Below, one piece after another: positions 3,759 through 37,165 of a stretch of DNA of 64,000 bases. Below the pieces are notes generated by a model that saw only the letters and a list, made by a program, of their open reading frames with translations, was not told the DNA's origin and ran no database searches. Origin of the DNA: an uncultured Bacteroidota bacterium (GTDB lineage: Bacteria > Bacteroidota > Rhodothermia > Rhodothermales > Rubricoccaceae). Positions within the stretch are counted from its first letter, which is position 1. Every line of letters starts with the position of its first letter. The DNA lies in the NCBI GenBank assembly GCA_963848075.1, contig CAWKCB010000004.1, positions 1,270,376-1,334,375 of the forward strand. The letters are read 5' to 3'. The position numbers were made by a program, and so were the translations under genes.

Positions 3759-3922
3759 GGGGGGCGCGGTATTTTTGATGCGTGGAGGTTACGTCTCGGC
3801 CTGTGCCGGGGTCTATCCTCCACCGCTCGCTTCGGCGGGCACCGAACGGCCGGCCGGACTTTCCCGGACCGGCGGACTCATGTCTCAGGGGGCCACCCGC
3901 GCCCCCGCACACCCCCAGCCTC

Positions 3923-4426: not shown

Positions 4427-4447
4427 CCTGTACTTGGAAGAACGAAC

Positions 4448-4490
4448 GGAGGGGAGTGTCGCTCAGGTGGCCCTCCCCTCCAGTGTTTTT
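4448..4490 (+). terminator. putative rho-independent terminator of ssb
   Basis: Perfect 9-bp stem GGAGGGGAG (4448-4456) / CTCCCCTCC (4473-4481) with a 16-nt loop, followed by GTGTTTTT. Confidence 0.65.
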
Positions 4491-4495
4491 AGACG

Positions 4496-5056: not shown

Positions 5057-5117
5057 GGCGCGCCAGCTGAGTTCATGCGATAGGGCCCCACCCGAGCCGC
5101 GTGCCTCGGTGAAAGAC

Positions 5118-5152
5118 GAAGACAGGCGCCGGACCCCCAGGCGCCTATCTTC
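5118..5152 (+). terminator. stem-loop downstream of the HNH gene (weak terminator candidate)
   Basis: 13-bp stem GAAGACAGGCGCC / GGCGCCTATCTTC with one mismatch and a 9-nt loop. No clear U tract follows. Confidence 0.3.
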
Positions 5153-5215
5153 GTTCGACCGGCTCCCGCCGGGCCCTCAGGGCTCCGGCCCGTTGTCTCG
5201 CCAGGTCCGCCCACC

Positions 5216-21605: not shown

Positions 21606-21608
21606 GGA

Positions 21609-22154
21609 CTAGGTGTGGATCGGGCGGGCGTGGGCGCGGTCGGCCTCGTGCTGGCGGAGGGCGGCGGCCGTCGCCGCCGGGAGGTCGCGGACCGAGACCG
21701 TGGTGACGCGCGCGGCGACGGTCCCCTCCGGGACCAGGATCTCGCGGACCTCGACCGTGACGTCGACGAGTGACGGGGAGCAGGCCAGCGAGAAGATGGA
21801 CGGGTCGAGCGCGCCCTCGACGCTTACGAACACGGTGTCGCCGCGGACGGCAGCCGCGAGCGGGCGCGGGGCGCGGTCGCCGCTGGGTGAGACCGCGACG
21901 GCGTCGTAGAGCACCTCGACGGCGCCGTCCGGCGTCGGGCTCGGGCTCTCGCCGACGCCCGCGCCGACGCTGACCTCGATGATGGGCGGCGCGTCGGTGA
22001 CGAACGCGACCGTCAGCGTGTCGCCGATCCCGCGGCCGTCGGCCACGAGCAGGCCGCCGGTCGTCGTCGTGCGCGACGTCTCGAACGAGCAGTCGGTGAG
22101 GGAGCACGCGCCGAGGGCGACGGTGGCCAGGAGCAGGAGGGCGAACGAGCGCAT
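21609..22154 (-). CDS. hypothetical lipoprotein
   Basis: MRSFALLLLATVALGAC lipobox. ATG 22154 chosen inside the longer ORF. The gene ends 3 nt before the yfhO-like start. Confidence 0.6.
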   Translation of the reverse strand: MRSFALLLLATVALGACSLTDCSFETSRTTTTGGLLVADGRGIGDTLTVAFVTDAPPIIEVSVGAGVGESPSPTPDGAVEVLYDAVAVSPSGDRAPRPLAAAVRGDTVFVSVEGALDPSIFSLACSPSLVDVTVEVREILVPEGTVAARVTTVSVRDLPAATAAALRQHEADRAHARPIHT

Positions 22155-22304
22155 GGCCGGCAAGATAGCCCGTGCCTGCCGCGGTCCCGCTGCCGCGCCA
22201 GTCTGTGGGGTCCGTCCCGGCATTCTCCAACCGCTCCCCCCCGCTCCCCCGACCATCGTCCCGCTCAAGGCTGGAAAGGCCGCCCCCTCGGAAGCTGACG
22301 AGGA

Positions 22305-22483
22305 GAGGCTTTCACGATCCGGCTCCCGCCCTCATGCCGTCATCCCCGCGAACGCGGGACCCGAGTCTTCGAGGACGGCGCAGCCCATCCAGGACGCCGG
22401 GGCCCGTCGGCGCTCGCGACTCTGGATCCCCGCCTGCGCGGGGATGACGGGGGCGGGGAAACGGCGCCCTCTGTGAAAGCCTC
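22305..22483. repeat. REP/MITE-like palindromic element (copy A)
   Basis: Outer inverted repeat GAGGCTTTCAC (22305-22315) / GTGAAAGCCTC (22473-22483). Inner units GTCATCCCCGCGAACGCGGGA (22339-22359) and CTCTGGATCCCCGCCTGCGCGGGGATGAC (22420-22448). Confidence 0.8.
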
Positions 22484-22532
22484 CCCCTACCAGCCCTCTG
22501 GAGGCAACCCGTCCGGGCGCGCCGGTCCGGCG

Positions 22533-23306
22533 TCAACTCACCCGTCCGTACGTCTCCAACTCGCTCGCGATCGCTGCCCGGACCTGCTCCTGAAGGTCGG
22601 CCGCGTCGGCGCGGGTTAGGCCGGCGGTCGGGATCGGCTCGCCCAGGACGAACCGGGTCTCGCCGGGTCGGGCCAGCTTGCCCACGACCGACAGCAGCCC
22701 GGCGTGGCCGACGACCGTCACCGGCACGACGGGCACGCCCGCCTCGATGGCGAGCACGAACGGCCCACGCATAAACGGGTGGAGGGCGTGGCCGTGGCTC
22801 CGCCCGCCCTCGGGGTACAGCAGGACCGAGTCGCCGCCGCGGATCCGATCGGCCACCCGGCGGAGGTCGGCGACCGAGCGACGGGCGTTGGAGCGGTCGA
22901 TGAACAGGCACGCCGTCTTCTCCAGCACCCACCCGACCATCGGCCACGCCCGGATCTCGTGCCGGGCGACGTAGAGGAACGGCCGTGGGAGGCCGAGCAT
23001 CGCCACCGGGATGTCGAGCGAGTTGACGTGGTTCGACGCGAACACGACCGGCCCGTCTGGCACCGGCGCCCGGGTCTCGACGCGGACGCGGACGCCCCAC
23101 AGCGTCAGGATGAACCGGGCCCACGGCCGCATCCAGAGCCGCAGCGTCCGCGCCGTCGGTCGGAACGCCGAGTGGAGCACGACGGCCGGGCTCATCGTCA
23201 CGGTAAAGAACGTGGCCCAGGCCAGCACCCAGCCGAACCACAGTCGGTGGGCCGGCGAGGGCGGCGGCGGGTCGACGAACAAGTGGGGTCGGTCGGGCGT
23301 GGGCAC
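22533..23306 (-). CDS. plsC: 1-acyl-sn-glycerol-3-phosphate acyltransferase
   Basis: NHVNSLD (HX4D) and LLYPEGGRS (PEGTR-like) motifs. GTG start. Confidence 0.85.
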   Translation of the reverse strand: MPTPDRPHLFVDPPPPSPAHRLWFGWVLAWATFFTVTMSPAVVLHSAFRPTARTLRLWMRPWARFILTLWGVRVRVETRAPVPDGPVVFASNHVNSLDIPVAMLGLPRPFLYVARHEIRAWPMVGWVLEKTACLFIDRSNARRSVADLRRVADRIRGGDSVLLYPEGGRSHGHALHPFMRGPFVLAIEAGVPVVPVTVVGHAGLLSVVGKLARPGETRFVLGEPIPTAGLTRADAADLQEQVRAAIASELETYGRVS

Positions 23307-23315
23307 GGGCGGAAG

Positions 23316-24116
23316 CTATCCCCGGCCCGCGTCTCGGAGCGCCCGCCGCGCCGACCGGATCAAGGCCGTCGCCGCGCCGAGCCCGCTCGTCCGGGCCGGC
23401 TCGGGGAGCGCGTCGATCACGAGCGGCGCGTCGGCGCCGGCCGCGGCGAGCGCGTCCAGGTGGGCGTCCCACCCCACGCTCCCCTCCCCGACACTCGCCC
23501 CGACCCAGCCCCCACCGGCCACGTCCCCGTCGCGAACGCCGACGCAGACGATCGGCACGACGGCGGCGACGAGCGCGGCCAGGCCGTCGGCCGGCGCCTC
23601 GCCGCTTGCCAGGGCGTCGGCCGGCCGCCAGTCGGCGCCGACCGCCGGGTGGCCGACGGCCGCGAGCCGCGCCGCCAACGCGGCGCCGGTGGCCACCTCC
23701 GTCGCCGCGTCGTTGCGGACGGCCAGCGTCAGGCCGAGCCGGGCGGCTCGGTCGCCGGCCTGCCGCAGCGCGTCCGCCGCGGCGCTGCCGTCCGAGGGCT
23801 CGGCCGCCAGCGCCCCCACGCGGACGCGGGCGCACCCGAACCGGTCGCCGAACGCGGCCACCTCGTCCAGACGGTCGACCTCGTTGAGCCACACCGCCCG
23901 CGACGCCGCGGCCCCCTCGAACAGCCCGGGGTCGAGCGCGACGACCGCCAGCTCGGCCTCGTCGAGGCGCCGCCGGAGCGGCCCCTCGGTCACGTCGGGC
24001 ACGCGCCCGCCGCCGACCGTCCGCAGCGCGACGCCGTCGAGGCCCCAGAACAGCGTCAGGCGGACCGCGCGGGCGGGGTCTCCGGTGGCCACGTCGGTCG
24101 TCCAGGCGGTCGTCAT
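23316..24116 (-). CDS. xylose isomerase-like TIM-barrel (sugar phosphate isomerase/epimerase) family protein, tentative
   Basis: 266 aa with natural composition and ATGA overlap with the upstream gene. Family call is from general resemblance only. Confidence 0.45.
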   Translation of the reverse strand: MTTAWTTDVATGDPARAVRLTLFWGLDGVALRTVGGGRVPDVTEGPLRRRLDEAELAVVALDPGLFEGAAASRAVWLNEVDRLDEVAAFGDRFGCARVRVGALAAEPSDGSAAADALRQAGDRAARLGLTLAVRNDAATEVATGAALAARLAAVGHPAVGADWRPADALASGEAPADGLAALVAAVVPIVCVGVRDGDVAGGGWVGASVGEGSVGWDAHLDALAAAGADAPLVIDALPEPARTSGLGAATALIRSARRALRDAGRG

Positions 24117-24790
24117 TGGAGGATCAGGGAGTCGGCGGGGAAGGGCCCGTCGAGGTCGGGGTCGGCGGGCGCCACGTAGCGGGCCCGCTCGGTCGTCCGC
24201 TCGACGAGGGCCCGCGCGAGGGCGACCGGGTCGAGCGCCGGGTCGAGCCGCTCGATGGCCACGCCGTCGATCTCGGCCGGCCCTTGGGGCCCCACCATGA
24301 CGACGGCGCGGACGGCGCCGCTCGGCCACAGCGAGCTCCGGATCACCTGGCGGATGCCGTCGCCGGCGGACCAGAACGCGACCTCGACGGTCCGCTCGGG
24401 CTGCGACGTCCACAGCGACCGCTCGACGAGCACGCGAGCGGCTTCGAGCACCGCCGCCGCCGCGGGCCCGTCCGCTCGCGTGCCGACGATGACCAGCTCG
24501 GAGCGGCCCAGCGGGCTCCGCCCCGGCACGAACCCGCCGACGACCGGGACGCCCAGGTCGGTCTGGTACGTCGCCACGAGCCCCCCGTCGCCGAACGGCG
24601 TCACGCCCGCGCGGACGAGCTCGCGCCGGAGGAACGCCCGTCGGGGCGTCGTGGACTGGGCCGCGGCGAGGGAGTCCGCCAGGCCCACCAGGGCGCGGGG
24701 CGAGACGGTGACCGCCGGGCCAGACGGCAGGGGGTCGGGACCGGCGCACGCCGAGACGGCGAGAGCGGAGGCCAGCAGGAGGACGCGCAT
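24113..24790 (-). CDS. hypothetical lipoprotein (M28-peptidase-like core without obvious metal ligands)
   Basis: MRVLLLASALAVSAC lipobox, with ATG 24790 preferred over GTG 24796. VIVGTRADGPAAAAVLEAARVL ... VEVAFWSAGDG weakly recalls the M28 fold. Confidence 0.55.
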   Translation of the reverse strand: MRVLLLASALAVSACAGPDPLPSGPAVTVSPRALVGLADSLAAAQSTTPRRAFLRRELVRAGVTPFGDGGLVATYQTDLGVPVVGGFVPGRSPLGRSELVIVGTRADGPAAAAVLEAARVLVERSLWTSQPERTVEVAFWSAGDGIRQVIRSSLWPSGAVRAVVMVGPQGPAEIDGVAIERLDPALDPVALARALVERTTERARYVAPADPDLDGPFPADSLILQ

Positions 24791-24796
24791 GGGCAC

Positions 24797-24832
24797 AAAA
24801 AAGGGGCCGCCCGGCAGATGCCGGGCGGCCCC
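24797..24832 (-). terminator. rho-independent terminator of the porin-like gene
   Basis: Perfect 13-bp stem GGGGCCGCCCGGC (24803-24815) / GCCGGGCGGCCCC (24820-24832) with an AGAT loop. The A6 run at 24797-24802 gives a U tract on the minus-strand transcript. Confidence 0.85.
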
Positions 24833-24853
24833 AAGACTACGGATCCGCCGGGG

Positions 24854-26017
24854 CTAGTTGAAGCCGACCGAGAGACCGACGGTACCGCCGATGGACGGCT
24901 TGACAGAGTTAGCGCCACCGATGGGGTACCCATAATCAGTGTACTCCTCCTGGACAGCGAACTTGACAAAGATGGACGCGGGGAGGTTCGGCGGCGAGAT
25001 CCGGATGTACGGCGAGACGGTGCCGGCGTGGCTGCCGATCCCGGACGTCGTGCCGATGTTCTCGACCGTCGGCTGATCGAACCGCGTCTGGATCTGGGCC
25101 GAGGCCCCGATCTCGAACACGCTCAGCTTGACGCCGGCCCCGAACATGAAGTTCAGGAGGTCCGAGTCGTCGTCCACCTCCGGCACGCCACCGGCCTGGA
25201 GCATGAAGTAGTCGATGCCGCCGAACAGGCGGAACCGATCGCTCGGGTAGTCGAAGTCGGCGCCGAACGTGATGGCGTCGCGGCCGTCCGAGTTCGAGAG
25301 CGCCGTCGGAAGCAGGAGCGGCGAGAACGCGGCGTTACCGGCGACGAGGGCCGTCGGCTGGATGTTCGGGGAGCCGTCGGCGTTGCGGGGCCCGATAGAG
25401 AGGGGCTGCTCGCCGAACCCGGGGATGTTCGCCCGGGCCTGGTCGCCGAACTCGCGCTCGCTGCCCAGGTCGAAGATGTAGCCGCCGTGGACGCCGACGA
25501 CGCGGCCGCGGGCCGAGCCGAACACCTTAACGCCCTGGAGACCGAAGTCGCTCTCGATGTTGCCGATCCCGTTCGTGAACGAGGGCGTGTCGGAGCCGGC
25601 CTGGAACTCGTTCTTGGCGACCGTCAGCAGGGCGCCGCCGCCGAGCTTGAAGGCCGGGAAGCTGATGAAGTTGACCTGGGCGCCGACGTTGACGCGCTGG
25701 CTCACGATGTCGCCGTTGGTGCCGGCCACGTTCAGCTCACCGTCGTTGCCCCTGGTGTCCCAGATGCTCTCGGCCTCGCCCCAGGCGTAGGACGCCCACA
25801 GCTTGATCGGGGCGGCGTCGGAGGGGATCCCGAGCGCGTACGTGTCGAGGGTGATGGTCTGGGGGTCCTGGGCCGACGCGCCGGTCTCGAAGACGCCGGG
25901 CGTCGCGTTCTCGGCCGTCCGGGGCGAGTCGGTGTCGTTCTTCTTCTTGTCGTCGTCACCGGGGGTGCCGATCGCGAGCGAGCCGGCCAACAGGCCAACG
26001 AGTGCCACGTTGAGCAT
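24854..26017 (-). CDS. outer-membrane beta-barrel (porin-like) protein
   Basis: N-terminal signal-like segment, alternating beta-strand pattern rich in G/N/F/Y, and C-terminal ...GLSVGFN. Confidence 0.65.
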   Translation of the reverse strand: MLNVALVGLLAGSLAIGTPGDDDKKKNDTDSPRTAENATPGVFETGASAQDPQTITLDTYALGIPSDAAPIKLWASYAWGEAESIWDTRGNDGELNVAGTNGDIVSQRVNVGAQVNFISFPAFKLGGGALLTVAKNEFQAGSDTPSFTNGIGNIESDFGLQGVKVFGSARGRVVGVHGGYIFDLGSEREFGDQARANIPGFGEQPLSIGPRNADGSPNIQPTALVAGNAAFSPLLLPTALSNSDGRDAITFGADFDYPSDRFRLFGGIDYFMLQAGGVPEVDDDSDLLNFMFGAGVKLSVFEIGASAQIQTRFDQPTVENIGTTSGIGSHAGTVSPYIRISPPNLPASIFVKFAVQEEYTDYGYPIGGANSVKPSIGGTVGLSVGFN

Positions 26018-26201
26018 GAGAAATCCTCTGGGGGTTGCGGGGGGATATAGACGGGGTGCAAGCGAGGAGCGCTTGCAGTGGGGCTCCTAAGCCCGCATCC
26101 TCGGGCGGTTCCGACCGGAAGATCCCCCGGACCTAGGAACGGCCACCAGGAACGGCACGGGACGTCCCTCGCTACCTTCTTCGCACACGCTCCCCACAGT
26201 A

Positions 26202-27971
26202 ATGGACTCTCCGGCTCGTGCTGCCCAGGCCTTCCTCGACCGCGAGCGGTCGCTGCTCAGCGCGCTCAGCGCCCTCCTCGACCGGTCCGACGCCCCCGAG
26301 GACACGCGCCGCCGCCTGGCCGACCTCGCCCGGACGCTCGACGAGCTGTTCCTGCTCGTCGTCGCCGGCGAGTTCAACGCGGGCAAGTCGACCGTCGTCA
26401 ACGCGCTCTTCGGGCGGCGCGTCATGGAGGAGGGGCCCGTCCCGACGACCGACAAGATCACCGTCCTGCGCCACGGCGACGCCGACGCGACGCACCGGCG
26501 CGGCGACCACGTCACCGTGCGGACGCTCGACCACCCGCTCCTGGAGAGCCTGGCCCTCGTTGACACGCCCGGGACCAACTCGATCGTCAAGGAGCACCAG
26601 GCCCTGACCGAGGACTACATCCCGCGCGCCGACTTGGTCCTGTTCGTGACCAGCTACGACCGGCCGCTCTCGGACTCCGAACGGACGTTCCTCGAGTACA
26701 TCCGCGGCGCCTGGGGCCGGCGCCTGGTCGTCGCCGTCAACAAGGCGGACCTGGCCGAGACCGAGGCGGCGCTCGACCAGGTGCTCGGCCACGTCCGCGA
26801 CGGGCTCGCGCGGATCTTCGCCGAGGCCGGCATCGAGGACGCCCGGCCGCCGCTGCTCTTCCCCGTCGCCGCCCGGCTCGCGCTCCAGGCCAAAGAGTCC
26901 GACCCCGACGGTTACCGCACGGACGAGCGGTGGGAGCGGTCCCGGTTCGCCTCGTTCGAGCGGTTCCTGACCGAGACGCTGACCGAGGGCGCCCGGGTCG
27001 CGCTCAAGCTGGCCGGCCCGCTCGACGCGGCCCAGACGCTGCTCGCCGACGTCCGCGAGCGGATCGAGGCCCAGCGCGAGATCCTCTCGGCCGACGAGAC
27101 GGAGCTGGCGACGCTGAACGGCCGGTTCGACGAGGTCCGCGCCCAGCTCGGCGAGGTCGCCGGCCGGGCCGTGGCCGACGTCGACCGCGAGCTGCTGGAG
27201 ATGGAGAAGCGGGGCGTCCGCTTCCTCGACGACACCATCCGCGTCTCGCGCCTCACCCTGATCCGCGACCGGAACGCGTTCCGCGAGGAGTTCGACCGCC
27301 AGGTCGTCCGCGACGCCGAGCACCGGATCGAGTCCCGCTTGGGCGAGGCCGCCGACGCCCTGCTCCGCCGCGTGTTCGAGCTGTGGAACGAGACCTACAC
27401 CCGGCTCGCCGACTTGCGCCGGGACCGGGCCCGCTCCGAGAGCGGGTTCCTCTACGACCGCGAGGAGGTCCTGCGCGACGTGCTCAAGGAGGCCCGGCGG
27501 GCCATCGACCAGTACGACGTGGGCGAGGAGGCCCGGCGCCTGCTCGAGAACGCCCGCTCGGCGCTGACCGTCGGCGGGGCCACGGCGGTCGGCGTCGGGG
27601 CCATCGCGGTGGTGCTCATCGCAACGACGGCGTTCGACGTGACGGGCGGGGTCCTGGCGGCCGGCGCGCTGGCGGCCCTCGGGTTCATCGTGCTGCCGGC
27701 CCAGCGGCGCCGCGCCGTCAAGGAGTTCTCCGAGCGCGTCGACACGCTGCGGGCCGAGCTCCGCGACGGGCTCGAGCGCGAGCTGACCGACGAGGTGGAC
27801 CAGGCCGTGGCCAAGGTCCGGGCGCTGGTCCTGCCCGTGGCCCGGCTGGCGCTCGACGCCCGCGCCGCGCTCGACGCCCAGGCCGCCGACGCCGACCGGA
27901 TCGACGCCGAGGCCACCGCGCTCCGCGCCGAGGTCCGCACCACCTTCGGGACGGGCGACGTGGAGGGGTAG
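26202..27971 (+). CDS. bacterial dynamin-like GTPase (BDLP family)
   Basis: G1 GEFNAGKST, G3 VDTPGTNS, G4 VNKADL. Long helical stalk and a hydrophobic paddle (VGVGAIAVVLIATTAFDVTGGVLAAGALAALGFIVL). Confidence 0.85.
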   Translation: MDSPARAAQAFLDRERSLLSALSALLDRSDAPEDTRRRLADLARTLDELFLLVVAGEFNAGKSTVVNALFGRRVMEEGPVPTTDKITVLRHGDADATHRRGDHVTVRTLDHPLLESLALVDTPGTNSIVKEHQALTEDYIPRADLVLFVTSYDRPLSDSERTFLEYIRGAWGRRLVVAVNKADLAETEAALDQVLGHVRDGLARIFAEAGIEDARPPLLFPVAARLALQAKESDPDGYRTDERWERSRFASFERFLTETLTEGARVALKLAGPLDAAQTLLADVRERIEAQREILSADETELATLNGRFDEVRAQLGEVAGRAVADVDRELLEMEKRGVRFLDDTIRVSRLTLIRDRNAFREEFDRQVVRDAEHRIESRLGEAADALLRRVFELWNETYTRLADLRRDRARSESGFLYDREEVLRDVLKEARRAIDQYDVGEEARRLLENARSALTVGGATAVGVGAIAVVLIATTAFDVTGGVLAAGALAALGFIVLPAQRRRAVKEFSERVDTLRAELRDGLERELTDEVDQAVAKVRALVLPVARLALDARAALDAQAADADRIDAEATALRAEVRTTFGTGDVEG

Positions 27972-28047
27972 GGTTCGGGGACGGAGGCCGTCGTTAAGCG
28001 TCAACCTGAGGCAGAGCGCCGCCCGGCGTTCGGGCTCGTCCCGTCGG

Positions 28048-28731
28048 TCATCGTGGCTCCGCCCGGCCCTGCTGGTCCGTGTCGAGGTCCACGATCTTCT
28101 TCCGCCGACGCTTCAGGCGCGCGTCCCAGTCAAGATCCGCGAGGAGGTATGCGAACGTTGCCCCCTCCCCCACAGTCACGGTCGTCTGCCCGGACTGGTT
28201 GGCGTCTGCCCCGACCGTGACCTCAATGGGCCCGCGGCCGGCCGTGATCTCCACATTCTGGCTGCGTCCGAACGTGTCGACAATGGAGGCCTCGGCGGCG
28301 ACGAACACGTCGGTGACGATGCGGGCGCGCCGACCTATGGATTTGAGGTCGCGGAGCGCATCCTTGTCGGCATTCGCCATCCTCTCGATGTCGTCGTGAT
28401 CGAGGCCGAGCTTGACCAGCTTCAGCGATCCCTCCTGCAAGCGCTCCCAGGCCTGGCCGGCACTGCCAGTGAAACCGATTCCCTTGAGCGTGCCCTCGAC
28501 GGCCTCGACGAACTTCGATTTCCGGGTCCGGCTGAAGTCGATTTCGACCGTGTAGACCTTGGCCTTCTTCGTCTTAGGGATCTTGATCTCGCCCTCGACC
28601 TCGAGGTAGTTCGCGCCCGCTACGGGCCAGCGTTTCTCCCCGTACGAGAGGAGCCGGACGTCCTCGGACCCGGCGCGAAAGTAGCGGATGTTGTTGTAGT
28701 TGAGAGAGCGGTATCTCACGACGGCTTTCAT
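28048..28731 (-). CDS. hypothetical beta-rich protein in low-GC islet (possible gasdermin-N-like pore-forming fold; unverified)
   Basis: 227 aa from ATG 28731 (MKAVVRYRSL...). No TM segment or known motif. Segments RRARIVTDVFVAAEASIV and TVTVGEGATFAYLLADLDWD are followed by a 24-aa charged tail. Local GC is 29/60 at 28681-28740. Confidence 0.6.
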   Translation of the reverse strand: MKAVVRYRSLNYNNIRYFRAGSEDVRLLSYGEKRWPVAGANYLEVEGEIKIPKTKKAKVYTVEIDFSRTRKSKFVEAVEGTLKGIGFTGSAGQAWERLQEGSLKLVKLGLDHDDIERMANADKDALRDLKSIGRRARIVTDVFVAAEASIVDTFGRSQNVEITAGRGPIEVTVGADANQSGQTTVTVGEGATFAYLLADLDWDARLKRRRKKIVDLDTDQQGRAEPR

Positions 28732-28870
28732 GATTACAGGGTGTTGGTGGATGGGTCTCCCGATGCGGCCGGTCCCCGAATGAGTTCTCGAAGACGACCT
28801 CGAACACGCGATAGTCGAGGATAGGAGATGATGAGTTTTGGTTTCCATATGGCAATTGCCCTATTCTGGA
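28732..28870. promoter_or_regulatory. AT-rich divergent intergenic region (putative divergent promoters)
   Basis: Lies between divergently oriented genes. Hand count of 28801-28860 gives 28/60 GC, the lowest-GC stretch noticed in the window. No consensus elements assigned. Confidence 0.4.
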
Positions 28871-29989
28871 ATGAATCTCGTACCGGCCACCATGCCGTTC
28901 TTTTCTGCTGACATCCTCGGCCCTCTGCGCGAAGCCCAGCGCGCGCTCCTCTCGCTCGACGCCAACGGAGACCTCGCCTCGTGGGCTACGCCTGCGTTCG
29001 CTCCCCTCTCTGAGTTGTTCCGGACGGACCACGTGTTCACCGTCGCCCCGGATGAGAGCGGAGAACGGCTCTCGATCTGCCACCCCGCGGCGGACGACTC
29101 GTTCGCGGAGGGGATCGCGAGGGAGTTCGTAGGCTTTGAGGACGGGTTCACGCGCTTCCGCGAGGCCTACCCAACCGGACTCCACCAGGTGCTCAAGTTG
29201 GCCGGCCCCGGCGTGCACCACGATGCCCCATTTATCAAGGGCCGGATCCGGGAGTCGCAGGCGATCTACCACGGCGTGCTGCGACCGGCCCAGGTTGAGC
29301 GCCAGCTCGCGGTAGCCGTCCCTCTCGAGACAGGAGAGGCGCTGCTGGAGATCGGGTTCGATGCGCGACACGTTCCGGCGATGGGTGAGGCCCGGCACCT
29401 TGCCCTCGGCCTCCTCCTCCCAGCTTTTGAGGCCGGCGTCCGGATCCGTGAGGCGGCCGGCGTTGCGGCCCGCCGGGAGTCTGCAGCGCTCGACGCGAGC
29501 GGAGCCGCTGTATTGGCCGTCGACGCGGACGGGATTGAACGGCACCGGACGCCTGCGTTCGAACGCCTCGTCGCGTCCGAACCTGAACGCGAGGATCTGA
29601 TCCGGGCTGTCGCCACATTCGCTCAGGAGCACACCCGAGGTGCGTCGCCGCCTCCCTCGCGGACTCTGCTGCTCGCAAGCGGTGCCTATGTGCTCCGAGC
29701 CACCCACGACGCTTCCATCCTCGAGGGGCCAGGCCTGCTCGTGTTTGTGGAGCGCCTGTCCGTGCTCCCGCCGGCGGCGGCCTTACAGACTCGGTTCGGG
29801 CTCTCCCCACGGGAAGCCGAGGTAACCCTTTTGTTGGCACAGGGGCACTCGGACAAAAGTGTAGCCGATGTTTTGTTCATCAGCCCCCACACGGCCCGAC
29901 GGCACGCCGAGCGGGTTCTGAAAAAAATCGGCGTGTCGAGCCGGTCAGCTGTCGCCTACGCCTGCCTAACGGGACCGGGTAGGCTGTAG
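28871..29989 (+). CDS. LuxR-family transcriptional regulator (C-terminal HTH, uncharacterised N-terminal sensor-like domain)
   Basis: C-terminus LSPREAEVTLLLAQGHSDKSVADVLFISPHTARRHAERVLKKIGVSSRSA is a GerE/LuxR HTH. Start is ambiguous (TTG 28838, ATG 28871 or ATG 28892). Confidence 0.8.
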   Translation: MNLVPATMPFFSADILGPLREAQRALLSLDANGDLASWATPAFAPLSELFRTDHVFTVAPDESGERLSICHPAADDSFAEGIAREFVGFEDGFTRFREAYPTGLHQVLKLAGPGVHHDAPFIKGRIRESQAIYHGVLRPAQVERQLAVAVPLETGEALLEIGFDARHVPAMGEARHLALGLLLPAFEAGVRIREAAGVAARRESAALDASGAAVLAVDADGIERHRTPAFERLVASEPEREDLIRAVATFAQEHTRGASPPPSRTLLLASGAYVLRATHDASILEGPGLLVFVERLSVLPPAAALQTRFGLSPREAEVTLLLAQGHSDKSVADVLFISPHTARRHAERVLKKIGVSSRSAVAYACLTGPGRL

Positions 29990-29994
29990 GTCCC

Positions 29995-31332
29995 TCATTC
30001 CTCGTCTTCGATCCGCCGCGCCTCGCGCTCCTCCGCGTCTGACCGGCGCGAGTACCACTTCATGAGCGGCGTGACGGAGACCCCGTGGACGACGATGCTG
30101 ACGGCGATGGTCGTCAGGACCAGGCCGAGCAGGAGGTCCGAGAAGCCGTCGTCGAGCCCGTGCGTCTCGGCGAACATGAGGTAGTAGACCGAGCCGATCC
30201 CGCGGACGCCGAACCACGCGATCAGCTCGCGCTGGAGCCCGCTCGACGACGACCCCGCCATCCCGATCCAGACCGCCAGCGGGCGGACGATGAGGAGCAC
30301 CGCCGGGACGAACCAGAGCGCGTCGAGCGTCCAGTCGGCCCGGTGGAGCAGCGCGCCGACGAGGACCACCAAGGCCACCGCCCCGATCCGCTCGAGCTGC
30401 TCGGCGAACCCGAGCACGGCCGACGCCATGTAGGCCGGGGCCACGTGCTCGTCGACGGCGACCTCCTCGGCCTGGCCCTCGTGGGCCATCGCCTCGACGT
30501 CCGCGGCCGGCTCGTCGCCGGTCTCGCGGCGCTCCTCGGCGCGGAGCGCGAGCCCGGCCGCGAACGCCGCCAGGAACGCGTAGGTGCTCACCAGGAGCGC
30601 CACGCCGTAGGCCAGCGCCACCAGCCCGAGCGCCAGGAAGTCGTCCGTGCCGACGGCCTCCCGGTGGGTCCGCCGGAGGTACACCACCAGCCGCCCGACG
30701 GCCACGCCCAAGAGGGCCCCCACGGCGATCCCGCCGAACACGGCCCACACGACGTCGACCAGGAGCCAGCGGCTGAAGTTCACGCCGACGTCGTGGAGGC
30801 CGAGCAGCCCCAGCCCCAGCATCACGAAGGGGAACGCGGCGCCGTCGTTGAACCCGGCCTCGCCGGTGAGCGAGAACCGGAGCCGGTCGGTGTCGTCGGG
30901 GTCCTCGATCTGGACGTCCGACGCCAACACGGGGTCGGTCGGCGCCAAGACGGCGCCCAGCAGGACGGCCGCCCCGATGGGCAGCTCCAGCCCGAACACC
31001 CCGATCGCGGCGATGCCGGCCACGGTCAACGTCATCGAGACGGTCGCGAGGCGGATCGGGAGCTTCCACCGGCCGTCCGAGAGCGGCGTCCGCAGCTTGA
31101 GCCCGGCCGCGAACAGCGACAGGATCACGACGATCTCCGTCAGCACCTCGAGGATGCCGGCCTCGTCGATCGGGTCGATCACGAGCAGCCCGATCCCGAG
31201 CGGCCCGATCCCCAGGCCGACCAGGAGGTAGAGCTGGGCGGTCGAGAGCGGGAGCCGGCCGAGCGTCGTCTTCCCCAACGCCATCAGCGTCAGGAGCAGG
31301 CCGGCGACGACGAACCAGAGAGCAAACGGCAT
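29995..31332 (-). CDS. cation:proton antiporter (CPA1, Na+/H+ exchanger family)
   Basis: 445-aa polytopic protein with typical Na_H_Exchanger pattern (GEAGFNDGAAFPFV, RGIGSVYYL). Confidence 0.85.
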   Translation of the reverse strand: MPFALWFVVAGLLLTLMALGKTTLGRLPLSTAQLYLLVGLGIGPLGIGLLVIDPIDEAGILEVLTEIVVILSLFAAGLKLRTPLSDGRWKLPIRLATVSMTLTVAGIAAIGVFGLELPIGAAVLLGAVLAPTDPVLASDVQIEDPDDTDRLRFSLTGEAGFNDGAAFPFVMLGLGLLGLHDVGVNFSRWLLVDVVWAVFGGIAVGALLGVAVGRLVVYLRRTHREAVGTDDFLALGLVALAYGVALLVSTYAFLAAFAAGLALRAEERRETGDEPAADVEAMAHEGQAEEVAVDEHVAPAYMASAVLGFAEQLERIGAVALVVLVGALLHRADWTLDALWFVPAVLLIVRPLAVWIGMAGSSSSGLQRELIAWFGVRGIGSVYYLMFAETHGLDDGFSDLLLGLVLTTIAVSIVVHGVSVTPLMKWYSRRSDAEEREARRIEDEE

Positions 31333-31450
31333 GGGCCTTCGATAGACGACCCCGGCTCGCCGAGGCGATGCCGGGGCCGGAGGGAGATGGATGTCGGAGC
31401 GCGAGCGGAGGCCTCAACGCGGCGTGCGCGTTGCCGGTCCCCCTCGGGCG

Positions 31451-31603
31451 TCAGTTGCCGCCGTTGGTGTCCTTCTTGTCGCCGCCACCGCCGGACCCGC
31501 CGCCGCCACCGCCCTGCGGGTCGTTGGTCTGCTTGATGCGGCCGGTCTTGGTGTTGTCGTCGCCGCGCTTCTCGTTGCGGGTGGTGTCGTCGGAGTCGCT
31601 CAT
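31451..31603 (-). CDS. possible 50-aa hydrophilic Gly-rich protein
   Basis: ORF below the track cutoff: MSDSDDTTRNEKRGDDNTKTGRIKQTNDPQGGGGGGSGGGGDKKDTNGGN. Nearly every third codon position is G/C, as in native genes. Confidence 0.45.
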   Translation of the reverse strand: MSDSDDTTRNEKRGDDNTKTGRIKQTNDPQGGGGGGSGGGGDKKDTNGGN

Positions 31604-31681
31604 GGGAGGGTGGGGATGGGGCACCGTACACGAGCCGGCACGCCCGGCAGGTCCGGTCGGAGGTCGGTCCCAGGCTCTCCC

Positions 31682-32332
31682 CTACCCCACCTCGTCCGCC
31701 AGCTGGCGGAGGAACGCGCGCAGGAACGCGGCGCGGCGCTCGCCCTCCGCGCGGCCGGCGTCGGTCCGCAGGGTGGCCGGCAGGCGCAGGAGCTTGGTGA
31801 ACAGGTGGTCCGTCGCCCAGCGCCGGTCGTCGAGCGGGCGCGTCGGCGGCTCCGACGGGACGGGGTCGGTCGGGTGCGTCAGGGCGGACCCCAGCGCCCC
31901 GGCCGTCGCGTAGAGACGGGCCACGCCGATGGCCCCGAGCGCGTCGAGCCGGTCGGCGTCCTGGACGACCGCCGCCTCGACCGTCTGGGGCTCGATCCCG
32001 GCCGACCAGCTGTGGGCCTCGATGACGTGGGCGACGGCGTCGAGCCGGTCGGGCGGATAGCCCTCTCCCCGCAGCCAGCCCGTCGCCGCTCCAGCCGCGA
32101 GAGCCGAGGCCCGCGCGCGGTCCGGTGCGTCCTTCGGCACCGCCACGACGTCGTGGAGCCACGCGGCCGGCACGACGACGGCCAGGTCGGCGCCCTCGGC
32201 GTCCGCGAGCCGGCGGGCCCACGTCACCACGCGGCGGACGTGGGCCAGGTCGTGCGCCGCGTCGCCGGCCATCGCCGACCGGACGTGCGTCTCGCACCGG
32301 TCCGACCACGCCTCGACCTCGGCGGCGCTCAC
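31682..32332 (-). CDS. HD-domain metal-dependent phosphohydrolase (YedJ-like)
   Basis: HDLAHVRRV ... WLHDV ... QDADRLDALGAIG motifs. GTGA overlap with the upstream gene. Confidence 0.8.
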   Translation of the reverse strand: MSAAEVEAWSDRCETHVRSAMAGDAAHDLAHVRRVVTWARRLADAEGADLAVVVPAAWLHDVVAVPKDAPDRARASALAAGAATGWLRGEGYPPDRLDAVAHVIEAHSWSAGIEPQTVEAAVVQDADRLDALGAIGVARLYATAGALGSALTHPTDPVPSEPPTRPLDDRRWATDHLFTKLLRLPATLRTDAGRAEGERRAAFLRAFLRQLADEVG

Positions 32333-33159
32333 GCCCACGCCTCGCGGTGGTCCTCCGCGAACTGGCGGAACGACCGGGGCGGGCGGCCCAGGACTCGCTC
32401 GACCGTGTCCGTCACGCGGTCGGCCAGGCCCAGCCGCGTCGACGTGTAGATCCCCGCCATGACGGCGGCGAACGCGGGGGCGTCGCCGGCCGCGAGCCGG
32501 CGCCGGACGAACGCGGCTAGGCCCGGCCGTCGGTAGTCGACGCGACGGCCGACGACGTCGGACAGGACCCGGGCGACCTCGAACAGGTCGATGGCCTCGG
32601 GCCCGGTCAGGTCGAAGGGGCCCGGGGCGGCGCCCGACGTGAGCCAGACGGCGGCCACGTCGCCGACGTCGCGGGCGTCGACCATCGACGTCTCGCCCGT
32701 TCCAGCCGGAACGTCGATCCACCCCTCGCGAACCTCGTCCGCGTGGACCTCCGAAAAGTTCTGCATGAAGTAGGCCGCTCGAAGCAGGCCCGCAGCGACC
32801 GGTGCCGCCACGAGGTGTTTCTCCGTCGATCGGTGCGGCAGCAGCGGGTTCCGGCCGGCTCCCAAGACGGACAGGAACGCGACGCGGCCCACGCCCGCCG
32901 CGACGGCTGCGTCGACGACGGGGTTGACGGCGTCGGCGCCGAGCGCGGGCGGGCGCATCAGGAACAGGCCGTCGGCCCCGTCGAGAGCGGGCCGGTGCGT
33001 GGTCGCATCGGCGAAGTCGAAGCGGACGGGCTCGGCCCCGTCCGGCAGTGCGTCGTCCGTGTGGCGGACGGCCGCGACCGTATCGTGCCCGTCGGCCAGG
33101 AGCCGTCGGACGACGGCCGCCCCAACGGTGCCGGTTGCCCCGGTGACGACGATGCGCAT
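32329..33159 (-). CDS. NmrA-like / NAD(P)-binding Rossmann-fold protein
   Basis: MRIVVTGATGTVGAAVVRRLL N-terminal dinucleotide-binding motif. Confidence 0.75.
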   Translation of the reverse strand: MRIVVTGATGTVGAAVVRRLLADGHDTVAAVRHTDDALPDGAEPVRFDFADATTHRPALDGADGLFLMRPPALGADAVNPVVDAAVAAGVGRVAFLSVLGAGRNPLLPHRSTEKHLVAAPVAAGLLRAAYFMQNFSEVHADEVREGWIDVPAGTGETSMVDARDVGDVAAVWLTSGAAPGPFDLTGPEAIDLFEVARVLSDVVGRRVDYRRPGLAAFVRRRLAAGDAPAFAAVMAGIYTSTRLGLADRVTDTVERVLGRPPRSFRQFAEDHREAWA

Positions 33160-33162
33160 GGG

Positions 33163-34218
33163 CTAGTCGCGGCGGGCAAACGCGTTGGCGGGGAGGTCAT
33201 GGGGCGACCCGACGCCGCCGCCGAACCCGGCCGCGAGCGCGCCCAGGAGCAGGGCGAAAAACCCGACGAGGGCCGCCGTGCCGAGGAAGTCGGTCGCGCT
33301 CTCGGCCGCCGAGACGGCCTCGGTCTGGAGCGAGTCGACCTCCTGGGAAACGGTCCGGCGGGCGCTCTGGAACTGGGCCTCCCAGCTCGTGACCGTCTCC
33401 CGGGCCTCGGCCTCCGACATCCCCGTCCGCGCGGCCAGCACGTTGACGAGGTCGGCCCGGTCGACGTCGCGGACGACGCCCTCGGCCCGCCCGTACGCCC
33501 GGTCGATGGCGGCCCGGACGTCGGCGTCGGCGATGTCGTCCGGCGCGTTCCGGGCCACGGCGTCGGCCTGGTCCGCGAGGGCCTCCGGCGTCAGGTCGGG
33601 GTCGCCGGTGTCGCGCAAGAGCTGCTCGGCCTCGGCGCGGATCGCCTCGACGTCGAGGTTCTGGAGGTCGACGCCGAACTGCTCCTGGGCGAGGTCGGCG
33701 GCGGCCGGGGCGACGGCCGTGACGCCGGACCCGATCGCGCTCAGGCCCGAGCCGATCAGCCCGGTCACACCCGAGACGACGCGCCCGACGCCGGACGTCA
33801 GGAGGTACAGCGTGAGCAGCGTCGTGAGCGCCCACACGACGACGCCGTGCAGCATCCCGTCGGTCTTGCGCGGCATCCCGGCGAGGCGGCCGGCTACCCA
33901 ACCGCCGGCGAACAGCGAGACCAGCGACGAGATCACCGTCCAGATCCCCTGGCCGATCCCGAACCCGCCGACCGAGTCGGACTCGGTGGCCGGGTCGAAC
34001 GTCTGGAGCCCGATGCCGAGCCCCAACAGGTTCAAGACGAACCCGGTCACGACGGCGACCAGGGCCCCGGCGAAGATGGCCCCCCAGCTGACGCGCTTGA
34101 TCGCGGCCGACCGGCGGCCGTAGTCGGTCGGGCCGTGCTCGTACTCGTTGTAGACGAAGACCTCGCGGTCGGGGGGCGTGGGGATGGAGCGGACGGTGGG
34201 CTCGACGGGTTCGGACAC
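33163..34218 (-). CDS. hypothetical membrane protein
   Basis: Four or more TM segments (WGAIFAGALVAVVTGFVLNLLGLGIGL etc.) plus a helical acidic middle region. GTG 34218 is a tentative start. Confidence 0.55.
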   Translation of the reverse strand: MSEPVEPTVRSIPTPPDREVFVYNEYEHGPTDYGRRSAAIKRVSWGAIFAGALVAVVTGFVLNLLGLGIGLQTFDPATESDSVGGFGIGQGIWTVISSLVSLFAGGWVAGRLAGMPRKTDGMLHGVVVWALTTLLTLYLLTSGVGRVVSGVTGLIGSGLSAIGSGVTAVAPAAADLAQEQFGVDLQNLDVEAIRAEAEQLLRDTGDPDLTPEALADQADAVARNAPDDIADADVRAAIDRAYGRAEGVVRDVDRADLVNVLAARTGMSEAEARETVTSWEAQFQSARRTVSQEVDSLQTEAVSAAESATDFLGTAALVGFFALLLGALAAGFGGGVGSPHDLPANAFARRD

Positions 34219-34348
34219 GATTTGGGGGGAGAGTTGGTGGGGCCCTCGCCCTACAAGGTCCCGTCCCGGACGTTCCGGGCCCGCACCGGTCTCGGGGCTC
34301 CCCCGAACCCCCGGGCAGGTCTTCCCGAAGCCCGACACGGCCTCGGTG

Positions 34349-37165
34349 CTACGCCACGACGAAGTTGACCAACCGGCCGGGCACCGCGATCTCCTTGCGG
34401 ACGGCCCCCTCCTCCAGGTACTTGGCCACGTTGGGCTCGGTCCGCGCGGCCGCCAGCATCGCGTCCTTGTCCGCGTCCGCGTCCACCACGACGGTCCCGC
34501 GGAGCTTGCCGTTGACCTGGACGGCGATCTCGACCGTGTCCTCCTTGAGGAGCTCGGCGTCGGCGTCGGGCCAGGGTTGGTAGGTGATCGTGTCGTCGTG
34601 GCCGAGCGCCTGCCACAACTCCTCGGCGAGGTGGGGGGCGAACGGCGACAGGAGCTGCGTGAACGTCTCGGCCGTCGGCTGGGGGATGTAGCCCCACTTG
34701 GTCGCCGCGTTGACGAACTCCATGAGTGCCGCGATGGCCGTGTTGAACCGCAGGCCCTCGACGTCGTCGCTGACCTTCTGAATGGTCGCGTGCAGGACGC
34801 GCTGCTGCTCGCGCGTCGGTGGGGCGTCCACGACGGTCGCGGCGCGCGAGCCCGTGTCGGGGTCGATCACCAAGCGGTAGGCCCGCGCGAGGAACCGGTG
34901 GACGCCGTCGACCGAGCGCGTATTCCAGGGCTTGGCCTGCTCGAGCGGGCCCATGAACATCTCGTAGAGCCGGAGCGAGTCGGCGCCGTACTCGGCCACG
35001 ATGTCGTCGGGGTTGACCACGTTGCCGCGGCTCTTCGACATCTTGTGGGCCCGGCTGCTCACGCGGACGTCGGGGTGGGCGGAGAGGACGAACCCGTCGC
35101 CCCCCTTCTCGACGTCGGTCTCCGAGACGGAGACGGCGACCAACATCGCGCCGTCGCGGTCGTCCTGGTGAGTCGCGGGCCCGTCGTCCTCGTCGGGCGC
35201 GTAGAGCTCGACGGCGTGCTCGGCCGAGACCCAGCCGAACGGCTGGCCGTCGTCGCCCACGCGGCGGAAGGCCGTGTACTCGACCTCGCCCAGGATCATG
35301 CCCTGGTTGACGAGCTTCTGGAACGGCTCGTCGGTCGACACCACGCCGGCGTCGAACAGCACCTTGTGCCAGAACCGGGCGTAGAGCAGGTGGAGCACCG
35401 CGTGCTCGGCCCCGCCGACGTACAAGTCGACCGGCATCCAGTACCGCTCCTTCTCGGGGTCGACGAGCGCCTGGTCGTTGCCCGGGTCGAGGTAGCGGAG
35501 GTAGTACCAGCACGAGCCGGCCCACTGCGGCATCGTGTTGGTCTCGCGGCGTGCGGGCCGGCCGGTCTCGGGGTCGGTCGTCGTGAGCCAGTCGGTCGCC
35601 GTCGCGAGCGGGCTCTCGCCGTTGTCGGCCGGCCGGTAGTCCTCGACCTCGGGCAACGTGAGCGGCAGCGCGCTCTTGGGCAGCGGCCGGGGCACCACGT
35701 CGCCGTCGTCGTCGGTCGTGTGGACGATCGGCATCGGCTCGCCCCAGTAGCGCTGGCGGCTGAAGAGCCAGTCGCGGAGCTTGTAGTTGACACGCTCCCG
35801 GCCGACCCCGTTCGACTCGAGCCACGCGATCACGTCGGCCTGCGCCGCCGGCACCGCCAGGCCGTCCAGCGTGACGCCCCGGTCGGCGATGTCGGCGACG
35901 GGCCCGCCGGAGGCGTCCGAGTTCATCACCGTGCCGTCGGCGCCGGTGTAGACCTCGGTCCAGTTCCGGGCGTCGTCGTTGTAGCCGCCGAACAGCAGGT
36001 CGGCCTCGGTGTCGGTCGGGGTGTCCGGGCCGGCGTGGGCGGCGAGCCAGGCGGCGGGCGGGCGGACGACCGGGCGGATCGGCAGGCCGTGGGCCTGGGC
36101 GAACTCGAAGTCGCGGGCGTCATGCGCGGGGACGGCCATGATGGCGCCGGTCCCGTAGCCGGCCAGCACGTAGTCGGCGATCCAGATCGGCACCTTCTCC
36201 CCGTTGACCGGGTTGACGGCGTGGGCCCCCGTGAACACGCCGGTCTTGGCCTTCTGCTCCTGGCGGTCGCGCTCGGTCTTGCGCGCCGCCTGGGCGACGT
36301 ACTCGCGGACGGCCTCCGCCTGGTCGGCGCCCGTGATCTCATTCACGAGCGGGTGCTCGGGCGCGAGCACCATGTAGGTCGCCCCGAACAACGTGTCCGG
36401 CCGCGTCGTGAACACGCGGACGTGGAGCGCGGGGTAGCCGAACACGCCGAAGTCGACCTCGGCCCCGACGCTCCGCCCGATCCAGTTCCGCTGCATCGCC
36501 TTGACGGACTCGGGCCAGTCGAGGTCGTCGAGCCCGTCGAGCAGCCGGTCGGCGTACTCGGTGATCCGGAGCATCCACTGCCGCATCGGGACCTGGACGA
36601 CGGGGTGGCCCCCGATCTCCGACCGGCCGTCGACGACCTCCTCGTTCGACAGGACCGCGCCCAGCTCGGGGCACCAGTTGACAGGCGCGAACGCCTCGTA
36701 GGCCAGGCCCCGCTCGTAGAGCGTCAGGAAGATCCACTGGGTCCACTTGACGTAGGCTGGGTCCGTCGTGTCGATCTCGCGCGACCAGTCGTAGCTGAAG
36801 CCGAGCCGCTGGAGCTGGCGCCGGAAGGTCTCCTCATTGCGGGCGGTCGTCACGCGGGGGTGGATCCCCTCGCGCAGGGCGGCCTGCTCGGCGGGGAGCC
36901 CGAACGCGTCCCAGCCCATCGGGTGGAGCACGTTGTAGCCCTGCATCCGCCGGACGCGGGCGACGATGTCGGTGGCCGTGTAGCCCTCGGGGTGGCCCAC
37001 GTGGAGCCCCGCGCCCGACGGGTACGGGAACATGTCGAGCGCGTAGAACCCGGGCTTGGAGGCGTCGAAGCCGTCGTCGCCGGGGCCGGGCTGGCGGAAC
37101 GTTTCGTGGTCGGCCCACCAGGCCTGCCACTTGGTCTCGATGTCGTCGTGGGGGTATCCGGCCAT
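34349..37165 (-). CDS. leuS: leucine--tRNA ligase
   Basis: HVGHPEGY (HIGH) and KMSKSRGN (KMSKS) motifs; 938 aa. Confidence 0.97.

Follow-up and report, generated by a model that had tools for sequence, protein, structure and literature searches.

The locus and its paired regulator

The 64-kb stretch of DNA analysed here (the window; 64,000 nucleotides) belongs to a marine Rubrivirga genome and carries, at 28048-28731 on the minus strand (stop codon 28048-28050), an open reading frame (ORF) for a 227-residue protein in which an earlier note, written from the letters alone, had recognised by eye the landmarks of a gasdermin N domain. The ORF exists as described, and the stretches quoted from it (LKLVKLGLDHDD...ARIVTDVFVAAEASIV, GQTTVTVGEGATFAYLLADLDWD and the tail ARLKRRRKKIVDLDTDQQGRAEPR) match the translation exactly. 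Judged by its translation, codon-position composition, homologues, Pfam Gasdermin relationship and AlphaFold2 model, 28048-28731 is a genuine coding gene. Its guanine-plus-cytosine (GC) content at codon positions 1/2/3 is 0.60/0.45/0.81, and full-length homologues of the protein are found at 43-52% identity. The same ORF can alternatively be read as 266 residues from an ATG at 28848. As the homologues all start at M1 of the shorter form (MKAVV, MAQVIV or MAKV...), the 227-residue form is the likely product. No signal peptide is present when the protein is read from either start, and its cysteine count is zero, in line with the missing N-terminal cysteine remarked on in the earlier note. The gene is compositionally foreign: the local GC content is 0.59-0.67 against 0.73 for the whole window, and the third-position GC is 0.81 in the gasdermin-like gene and 0.76 in the adjoining LuxR-type gene versus 0.93-0.99 in the flanking genes, which substantiates the low GC noted before.

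Leucyl-tRNA synthetase and PurF encoded in the window share 90%-identity clusters with proteins of Rubrivirga (Rhodothermaceae). Comparison with a contig of a related Rubrivirga sp. (L063) places both genes in a difference between the two genomes. The blastn alignment is colinear up to window position 27979 and resumes at 30020; in the related contig, the exchanger and dynamin-like genes that flank the gap lie 75 bp apart according to the gene calls, and 91 bp there are left unaligned by blastn. The gasdermin-like and LuxR-type genes thus constitute a strain-specific insertion of ~2 kb (27980-30019) that holds only these two genes, set between a dynamin-like GTPase gene (26202-27971, plus strand) and a Na+/H+ exchanger gene (29995-31332, minus strand). 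By this comparison, the gasdermin-like gene was gained horizontally together with its LuxR-type regulator. A target-site duplication and terminal or inverted repeats were sought at the edges of the insertion and none was found. A phage or plasmid origin was considered and rejected, there being no tblastn match in phage or plasmid collections, no BFVD structural match and no viral-contig match. The same gasdermin-like/LuxR pair is present on a 2.1-kb contig of another data set.

The second gene of the insertion, at 28838/28892-29989 on the plus strand, encodes a regulator of the LuxR/GerE family. Its longest ORF begins at TTG 28838, and alignment with homologues supports a start at ATG 28892. 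The GerE helix-turn-helix (PF00196, E 6e-12, residues 322-373, about 29801-29956) bears out the divergently transcribed LuxR-type partner proposed in the earlier note, and matches in the PDB are limited to this element (the DNA-binding domains of GerE, NarL, VraR and DevR). Residues 1-300 gave no Pfam, NCBIfam or PDB sequence match and no autoinducer-binding or receiver domain; this N-terminal portion of ~300 residues is presumably sensory, and is conserved in only a handful of metagenomic homologues, among them cases of 70% and 45% identity. A second pair was located on an unrelated contig (L077, GC 0.68), in which a gene of the same family (3845-4522, minus strand), encoding a 225-residue protein 52% identical to that of Rubrivirga, is divergent from a regulator gene (4771-5955, plus strand) whose product (P0194) is 70% identical to the regulator in the window. 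The effector-regulator pair is consequently conserved in a second genomic context, with the regulator more conserved than the effector. Two further relatives of the regulator (L076, 6001-10349; L078, 6001-9982) are divergent from large unrelated genes and are followed by an extracytoplasmic function (ECF) sigma factor and/or a Ser/Thr kinase-TPR protein. The same set flanks gasdermin-like genes in two other loci (L013 and L037) and may represent a recurring regulatory module with variable target genes.

The divergent intergenic or control region between the two genes spans 160 bp (28732-28891) and includes, at 28847-28864, the 18-bp near-palindrome ATATGGCAATTGCCCTAT, which occurs once in the window and in none of 100 shuffles. 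The near-palindrome overlaps a -35 box that resembles those of sigma-70 promoters and is oriented towards the gasdermin-like gene, a box to be read with the reservation that the sigma-70 consensus may not apply in the host phylum. A conserved operator shared with the intergenic regions of L077, L076 and L078 was sought and none was found, the palindrome being specific to the window. Since it has no conserved counterpart between the two L077 genes, its role as an operator is hypothetical.

Relationship to the gasdermin pore-forming domain

Used as a single query, the Rubrivirga protein falls short of recognition. Against the Pfam Gasdermin model (PF04598) it scores 13.8 bits (E 0.041) with a cut-off of 25, and phmmer against the PDB retrieves the N domain of GSDMD (GSDMD-N) with E 0.58, over the same region as the family profile described below; such single-query matches are to be read as leads, not as proof. 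A word-indexed search with the protein yielded one other cluster, P0002, at 49% identity. This relative matches Pfam Gasdermin with 33.3 bits (E 4.5e-8), above the curated cut-off, its residues 45-201 covering positions 57-217 of the 240 in the model. An exhaustive HMMER search with a two-sequence profile (the query and P0002) then defined a family of at least 331 clusters at E<=1e-3, 245 of them at E<=1e-10, which are mostly metagenomic and are almost all full-length proteins of 210-250 residues. A 142-member alignment of this family is the basis of the counts of Pfam matches, cysteines and signal peptides given here. Pfam Gasdermin is matched at E<=1e-3 by 20 of the 142 aligned members (best 1.2e-9), and other Pfam families by none.

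Searches with the family profile led to the same proteins. Among all PDB sequences it retrieved human and mouse GSDMD (6vfe, best E 3.3e-5), GSDMA3 and the Trichoplax gasdermin, and one weak twinfilin match was the sole hit outside the gasdermins. Alignment of the family to human GSDMD-N by hhalign gave a probability of 85% (E 6e-6, 115 columns), with residues 86-203 of the Rubrivirga protein placed on GSDMD 101-224. The core so defined by hhalign, the family profile and phmmer (28123-28476, minus strand) contains the ARIVTDVFVAA strand and the TVTVGEGATFAYLLADL strand. In the different searches the alignments run collinearly for 115-157 residues and take in three distinct conserved motifs. 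The segments of the HMMER and hhalign alignments to GSDMD coincide with the two strands first picked out by eye, NVYVVTEV and TVTIPSGSTLAFRVAQL, so that the gasdermin-N-like landmarks of the earlier note stand; the profile searches that it proposed return gasdermins at the level of the family, with Pfam, PDB-profile and hhalign matches, the query alone being sub-threshold. On this evidence we consider homology between the Rubrivirga protein and the gasdermin pore-forming domain to be very probable.

Structure prediction, another check that had been proposed, was of mixed outcome with respect to the gasdermin N fold, which is a twisted antiparallel β-sheet into which helices are inserted. The AlphaFold2 model of the Rubrivirga protein has a predicted local distance difference test (pLDDT) value of 89.2 and a predicted template modelling (pTM) score of 0.87, and that of a family member from Methylobacter marinus reaches a pLDDT of 93.0 and a pTM of 0.90. 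The Rubrivirga protein is predicted to adopt a soluble α/β fold. In Foldseek searches of the PDB, the top five hits of the Rubrivirga model and the top seven of the Methylobacter model are all gasdermins (TrichoGSDM, GSDMD, the GSDMA3 pore, GSDMB and the GSDME pore). For both models the best hit is TrichoGSDM (8jyv; probability 0.96 and 0.93), followed by 7z1x, 6cb8, 8gtj, 9pe0, 8jyw, 8gtn and 6n9n. However, the E-values of these hits are 1e-3 or worse, the TM-scores amount to only 0.2-0.36 and the root-mean-square deviations to about 9-23 Å, and the structural evidence is accordingly consistent with the relationship but weak.

The family alignment further displays two regions, ~72-99 and ~157-188, in which hydrophobic and polar columns alternate strictly. 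Both are located where gasdermins keep the elements that refold into transmembrane hairpins. The candidate first membrane-inserting hairpin (residues 72-99; 28435-28518, minus strand) is built of short helices in the model of the Rubrivirga protein, and of a β-hairpin (E79-83/E86-90) in the Methylobacter model. Over the model helix 71-78 the family-averaged hydrophobicity is nevertheless β-periodic (mu180 1.6-1.8 vs mu100 0.3-0.8), in contrast to the genuine amphipathic helices of residues 112-132, which show α periodicity. The candidate second hairpin (residues 157-188; 28168-28263, minus strand) reads NVEITAG-RG-PIEVTVGA and then passes into a Gly/Ser-rich loop; positions 160/162/164 and 169/171/173 are hydrophobic with polar columns between them, and residues 157-176 are again β-periodic (mu180 1.2-1.7 vs mu100 below 0.3). 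It sits between two GSDMD-aligned strands, which in GSDMD itself are VYVVTEV and TVTIP. As a sequence pattern, such alternation in two regions is the signature expected of a β-barrel pore former. Conserved basic positions that could bind anionic lipids are R19, K33, K/R34, the invariant R137 and the polybasic segment 205-212.

The C-terminal tail (residues 204-227; 28051-28122, minus strand) consists of the polybasic loop RLKRRRKK, a β-strand IVDLDTD and the family motif D-Q-(W)-G, and its last ~5 residues are specific to the 227-residue protein. The family ends about 20 residues past the last aligned strand. Conservation is high at D219 (99%), at W202 before the loop (90%) and at G222 (79%), the loop itself varying across the family from 0 to 9 K/R, and the tail strand (213-219) is modelled at a pLDDT of about 97 in both AlphaFold models. 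Given that the tail is conserved in the family over residues 204-222 and includes a confidently modelled β-strand, and that the protein in its entirety does not exceed a gasdermin N domain in length, it is unlikely that the charged tail is a removable inhibitory peptide of the kind found in bacterial gasdermins (bGSDMs). It may instead be the last strand of the core, GSDMD having a strand at the equivalent place, or a minimal lock. Truncation after LADLDWD, as suggested in the earlier note, may accordingly destabilise the protein instead of activating it.

The family, its export and its neighbourhoods

Members of the family that carry no signal peptide are 213-232 residues long. Classical Sec signal peptides with AxA-type cleavage sites were recognised in 26 of the 142 members (18%; e.g. 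P0026, P0027, P0029 and P0059), and for this subclade export into the periplasm or further outwards is predicted. The latent fold would thus be compatible with export, and the family as a whole would not be only a cytoplasmic suicide device. An N-terminal cysteine, whether among residues 1-6 or immediately ahead of the core, is present in none of the 142 members. Nor does the family possess any conserved cysteine or the Sec-exported subclade a conserved cysteine pair, and a disulfide lock in that subclade was rejected on the latter ground.

Genomic neighbourhoods were collected with hand-made degenerate DNA patterns, which gave 49 metagenomic loci in addition to loci from genomes and contigs. 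The survey comprised 128 neighbour proteins from about 45 non-redundant loci, many of them on short contigs; only 9 loci have at least 1.5 kb on both sides, and the neighbour frequencies are therefore rough. The pattern for the C-terminal motif (TFAY...DDQWG) gave four hits in genomes, two of which are true family members (L005 and L006). A Parabacteroides locus (L004) and a short Vicinamibacterales contig (L007) were discarded for lack of a tblastn match, and the 12 hits of the same pattern in viral contigs were all due to chance. Among the 128 neighbour proteins no recurrent partner was detected by Pfam or by all-against-all BLAST, the latter giving only small clusters among closely related loci. 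Tandem paralogues were not seen in the about 45 loci, and the window holds a single family gene. Regulators are frequent neighbours (LuxR-type proteins, ECF sigma factors with a Ser/Thr kinase-TPR protein, a sigma-54 activator and a SARP-NB-ARC protein), which may be chance, and the PADLOC hits among the neighbours are generic kinase and ATPase matches.

No protease family recurs among the same 128 proteins, and no protease is conserved beside the family genes. The inspection of homologue neighbourhoods that had been recommended thus left two isolated cases, in about 45 loci, of gasdermin-type proteases, a set that takes in caspase-like, CHAT, subtilase, trypsin-like and U49 enzymes. In the first (L044, 1702-7265) a TPR-CHAT protease of 1121 residues, the protease type that activates the Runella bGSDM, is encoded 1.5 kb downstream of the family gene on the same strand, after a 92-residue ORF and a zf-HC2 anti-sigma-like protein (312 residues); its close relatives L037 and L039 do not share this arrangement. 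In the second (L012, 3994-9564) a TPR protein and a Peptidase_S8 subtilase are encoded divergently upstream of the family gene, and an RTX calcium-binding repeat protein (256 residues) immediately downstream. In addition, a Peptidase_M74 gene (MepA-like murein endopeptidase) adjoins the family gene in Methylobacter-type loci (L010, 6889-7764; L030, 10922-11797), and a weakly M74-like protein is encoded beside it in an unrelated high-GC locus (L016, 1598-2359).

Likewise, the Rubrivirga gene has no adjacent protease, as had been stated from the outset: no protease domain was detected in the insertion or among the ORFs of 19005-37165, i.e. about 9 kb either side of it. Four ORFs within these limits are without a Pfam match; of these, at least three (21609-22268, 24113-24796 and 24854-26017) lie in blocks common to the related genome and hence outside the insertion. 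The lipoprotein at 24113-24796 (minus strand) was considered as a protease and rejected, having no Pfam match, being conserved in the related genome and lying outside the insertion. The neighbours in the window are of housekeeping character (the dynamin-like GTPase, the Na/H exchanger, an HD protein and leucyl-tRNA synthetase) and form no defence island. The dynamin-like GTPase has a Dynamin_N domain and also matches the PADLOC LeoA/LeoBC models. As this gene is kept at the same place in the related genome, it is probably by coincidence that it adjoins the gene of a putative pore former.

Apart from the ~2 kb insertion, the gene order of the related contig equals that of the window over most of the surrounding region, save for a second indel at 32331-34351, in which an NmrA-like gene (32329-33159) and a 391-residue ORF with no Pfam match (33163-34338) replace two small ORFs of L063. 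Two proteins encoded in the shared blocks on the minus strand lack Pfam and NCBIfam matches and are conserved in the related genome, namely a β-rich protein of 387 residues (24854-26017) and a predicted lipoprotein that is likewise of 227 residues (24113-24796).

Interpretation and comparison with known systems

In combination, these results indicate that the Rubrivirga protein is truly homologous to the gasdermin domain, though very divergent from it, and that its architecture is one not yet described for bacteria. Pore formation is what we infer from the conserved patterns of its sequence. The interpretation that we prefer, and which we hold to be plausible at a little less than an even chance, is that of a latent gasdermin-type pore former made of the N domain alone, the synthesis of which is controlled by a dedicated transcription regulator. 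The protein would be made as a latent, soluble cytoplasmic monomer, under the control of the divergently transcribed regulator, the ~300-residue N-terminal domain of which would sense a signal. After synthesis of the protein, perhaps with the help of a further trigger, the basic residues listed above (R19, K33, K/R34, R137 and 205-212) would bind anionic lipids of the inner membrane, and the segments ~72-99 and ~157-188 would refold into β-hairpins. Oligomerisation would then yield a β-barrel pore, and the resulting permeabilisation of the membrane would end in regulated cell death or lysis. Candidate triggers for leaving the latent state are lipid binding alone, or the loss or displacement of the C-terminal strand.

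Several observations weigh against this scheme. The Rubrivirga protein alone remains below the Pfam threshold, its first ~85 residues align to nothing, and as a whole it superposes poorly on the solved gasdermins. The predicted export of part of the family is at odds with a suicide role confined to the cytoplasm for all of its members, and the genomic context is one of housekeeping genes instead of a defence island. The closest homologues other than that of L077 have no adjacent LuxR gene, and the palindrome is not conserved in L077. Finally, it would be hazardous to control a lethal pore former by transcription alone, and the characterised gasdermins all have a post-translational lock as well; none was identified for the Rubrivirga protein, in which the cysteines for a disulfide or an N-terminal anchor are absent and around which no protease domain was detected in 19005-37165.

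In a rival reading, the protein would be a cleavage-activated gasdermin whose protease is encoded elsewhere, be it a housekeeping, a stress-induced or a phage enzyme. A cut in the exposed RLKRRRKK loop would release the IVDLDTDQ strand that keeps the protein latent, and the domain could then insert into the membrane. The tail strand, modelled with very high confidence, packed in the fold and bearing the almost invariant D219, would suit this role, as would the flexible polybasic loop preceding it; characterised bGSDMs are all cleavage-activated, and the gasdermin-type proteases of L044 and L012, together with the M74-type peptidases of the Methylobacter-type loci and the weak match in L016, point in the same direction. 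Conversely, no protease is encoded in the insertion or in its surroundings, no protease family recurs among the neighbours, the CHAT protease is missing in the close relatives of the L044 protein, and the polybasic loop is of variable length. The protein is moreover no longer than a gasdermin domain, and its tail may be the last core strand, as in GSDMD. We consider cleavage by a distant protease rather unlikely. Another unlikely alternative retains the gasdermin-type fold and assigns it a non-lytic task, namely to bind membranes or lipids or to serve as a regulated conduit; the Sec-exported relatives would then be directed to the envelope or to other organisms, and the Rubrivirga copy would be a cytoplasmic variant. 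Membership of the gasdermin family does not guarantee proven pore formation, as pejvakin/DFNB59 is a member that is not a proven pore former. The signal peptides imply that producing cells survive the presence of the fold beyond their cytoplasm, the contexts of the family are heterogeneous and mostly not defence-related, and an RTX-repeat protein is encoded directly downstream in one locus (L012). Nevertheless, amphipathic alternation that is conserved in exactly the two transmembrane-hairpin regions is hard to explain without membrane insertion, and no domain match suggests an alternative activity.

The resemblance to gasdermins could also be due to chance or to convergence among β-rich, Gly/Ser/Thr-rich sequences of an unrelated fold, which would account for the E-values of the single query (0.041 in Pfam and 0.58 in the PDB), for TM-scores that are in the range of unrelated folds and for the unaligned N-terminal third, as well as for the large deviations of the gasdermin hits. 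However, the Pfam model, the family profile against the PDB, hhalign and the 3Di searches with two models all converge on gasdermins alone, the alignments are collinear with three separate conserved motifs, and there is a weak link to the bGSDM model (2 of 142 members, E 2e-4). An unrelated fold is hence regarded as very improbable.

Beyond the single protein, we advance as a tentative and on balance doubtful proposal that the family is a third, undescribed prokaryotic lineage of gasdermins. Members of such a lineage would comprise nothing but the pore-forming domain and would lack a protease, a lipid anchor and a removable peptide. In sequence they would be closer to metazoan gasdermin N domains than the known bGSDMs are, and dedicated transcription regulators, not proteolysis, would switch them on. 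The sizeable Sec-exported subclade would work from the outer side of the cytoplasmic membrane and affect either the envelope of the producer or other cells. Gasdermins that need no cleavage are otherwise known from one placozoan and one fungus only. If the proposal is correct, protease-independent control would not be a eukaryotic oddity, a closer prokaryotic relative may exist for the origin of the eukaryotic gasdermins, and gasdermin-type pores may work outside the cytoplasm. The Rubrivirga locus, as a minimal two-gene module of regulator plus effector, is directly amenable to laboratory testing.

By host kingdom, the nearest counterparts are the bGSDMs of Runella, Bradyrhizobium and Vitiosangium (Johnson et al. 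2022, 2024), which are likewise small gasdermin-N homologues lacking the large eukaryotic C-terminal domain, and whose hairpin regions are also folded into small α/β elements while the protein is latent. Characterised bacterial gasdermins are protease-triggered suicide effectors of anti-phage defence. The 50 published bGSDMs are 249-318 residues long, with gasdermin domains of 207-251 residues and a cleavable peptide of 17-67 residues. A protease is encoded beside 43 of the 50, most carry a palmitoylated N-terminal cysteine, and they are often found in defence islands. The present family, at 213-232 residues, therefore corresponds to the domain alone, and it differs further in lacking both the N-terminal cysteine and a conserved protease neighbour. 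The list of 50 contains no Methylobacter or Rubrivirga entry and, apart from an incomplete entry of 195 residues, none under 249 residues. Direct similarity is also slight: the Rubrivirga protein gave no hit at E<=1 to the PADLOC models, which include bGSDM, and the bGSDM model (PDLC02986) is matched weakly by 2 of the 142 members (best E 2.3e-4), so that the eukaryote-derived Pfam model is matched ten times more often (20 vs 2 of 142). Solved bGSDM structures are found neither among the PDB sequence hits at E up to 10 nor in the Foldseek top 50. In the literature searched, accounts of bacterial gasdermins are confined to proteins that carry a short inhibitory peptide and are activated by a protease, and no report of protease-less or Sec-exported homologues was found. 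One structure-clustering study noted gasdermin-like clusters lacking annotation, among which the present family may be, and left them uncharacterised. The earlier suggestion that the architecture is undescribed also holds in this literature, as no description of a gasdermin-like/LuxR pairing was found in it.

By architecture, the protein is closer to TrichoGSDM of Trichoplax (PDB 8JYV/8JYW) and to RCD-1 of Neurospora, which consist of a single pore-forming domain of about 220-250 residues, are activated without cleavage, and have neither a C-terminal repressor domain nor a dedicated protease. TrichoGSDM is also the best Foldseek hit of both models and is matched by the family sequence profile. 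However, its lock is a disulfide-linked dimer, for which the cysteine-free Rubrivirga protein and its family offer no conserved residues, and RCD-1 requires two incompatible alleles to meet, whereas one family gene is found in the window and no tandem paralogues in the about 45 loci; a second RCD-1-like partner may be encoded elsewhere. Further differences from both are the bacterial origin of the family, the N-terminal α1 region missing from its alignments and the coupling to a transcription factor.

By sequence, the best profile matches are the N domains of mammalian GSDMD and GSDMA3, with which the β-strand/helix/β-strand core and the second-hairpin region are collinear. The corresponding motif pairs of GSDMD and the family are VYVVTEV with ARIVTDVFV, and TVTIPSGSTLAFRVAQL with TVTVGEGATFAYLLADL. 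Conversely, a C-terminal autoinhibitory domain and a caspase site are lacking, and no region can be aligned to the lipid-binding α1/β1-β2 elements. Identity to the mammalian N domains is about 10-20%, and global superposition is poor.

As regards regulation, a parallel is provided by CBASS (cyclic-oligonucleotide-based anti-phage signalling system) operons under CapW or CapH/CapP control, in which a potentially lethal effector is likewise combined with a dedicated, divergently encoded transcription regulator. The regulator families are unrelated, and the CBASS effector has in addition a separate post-translational activator. Taken together, the closest known systems are TrichoGSDM and RCD-1 by architecture, metazoan GSDMD and GSDMA3 by sequence, and the bGSDMs by host kingdom.

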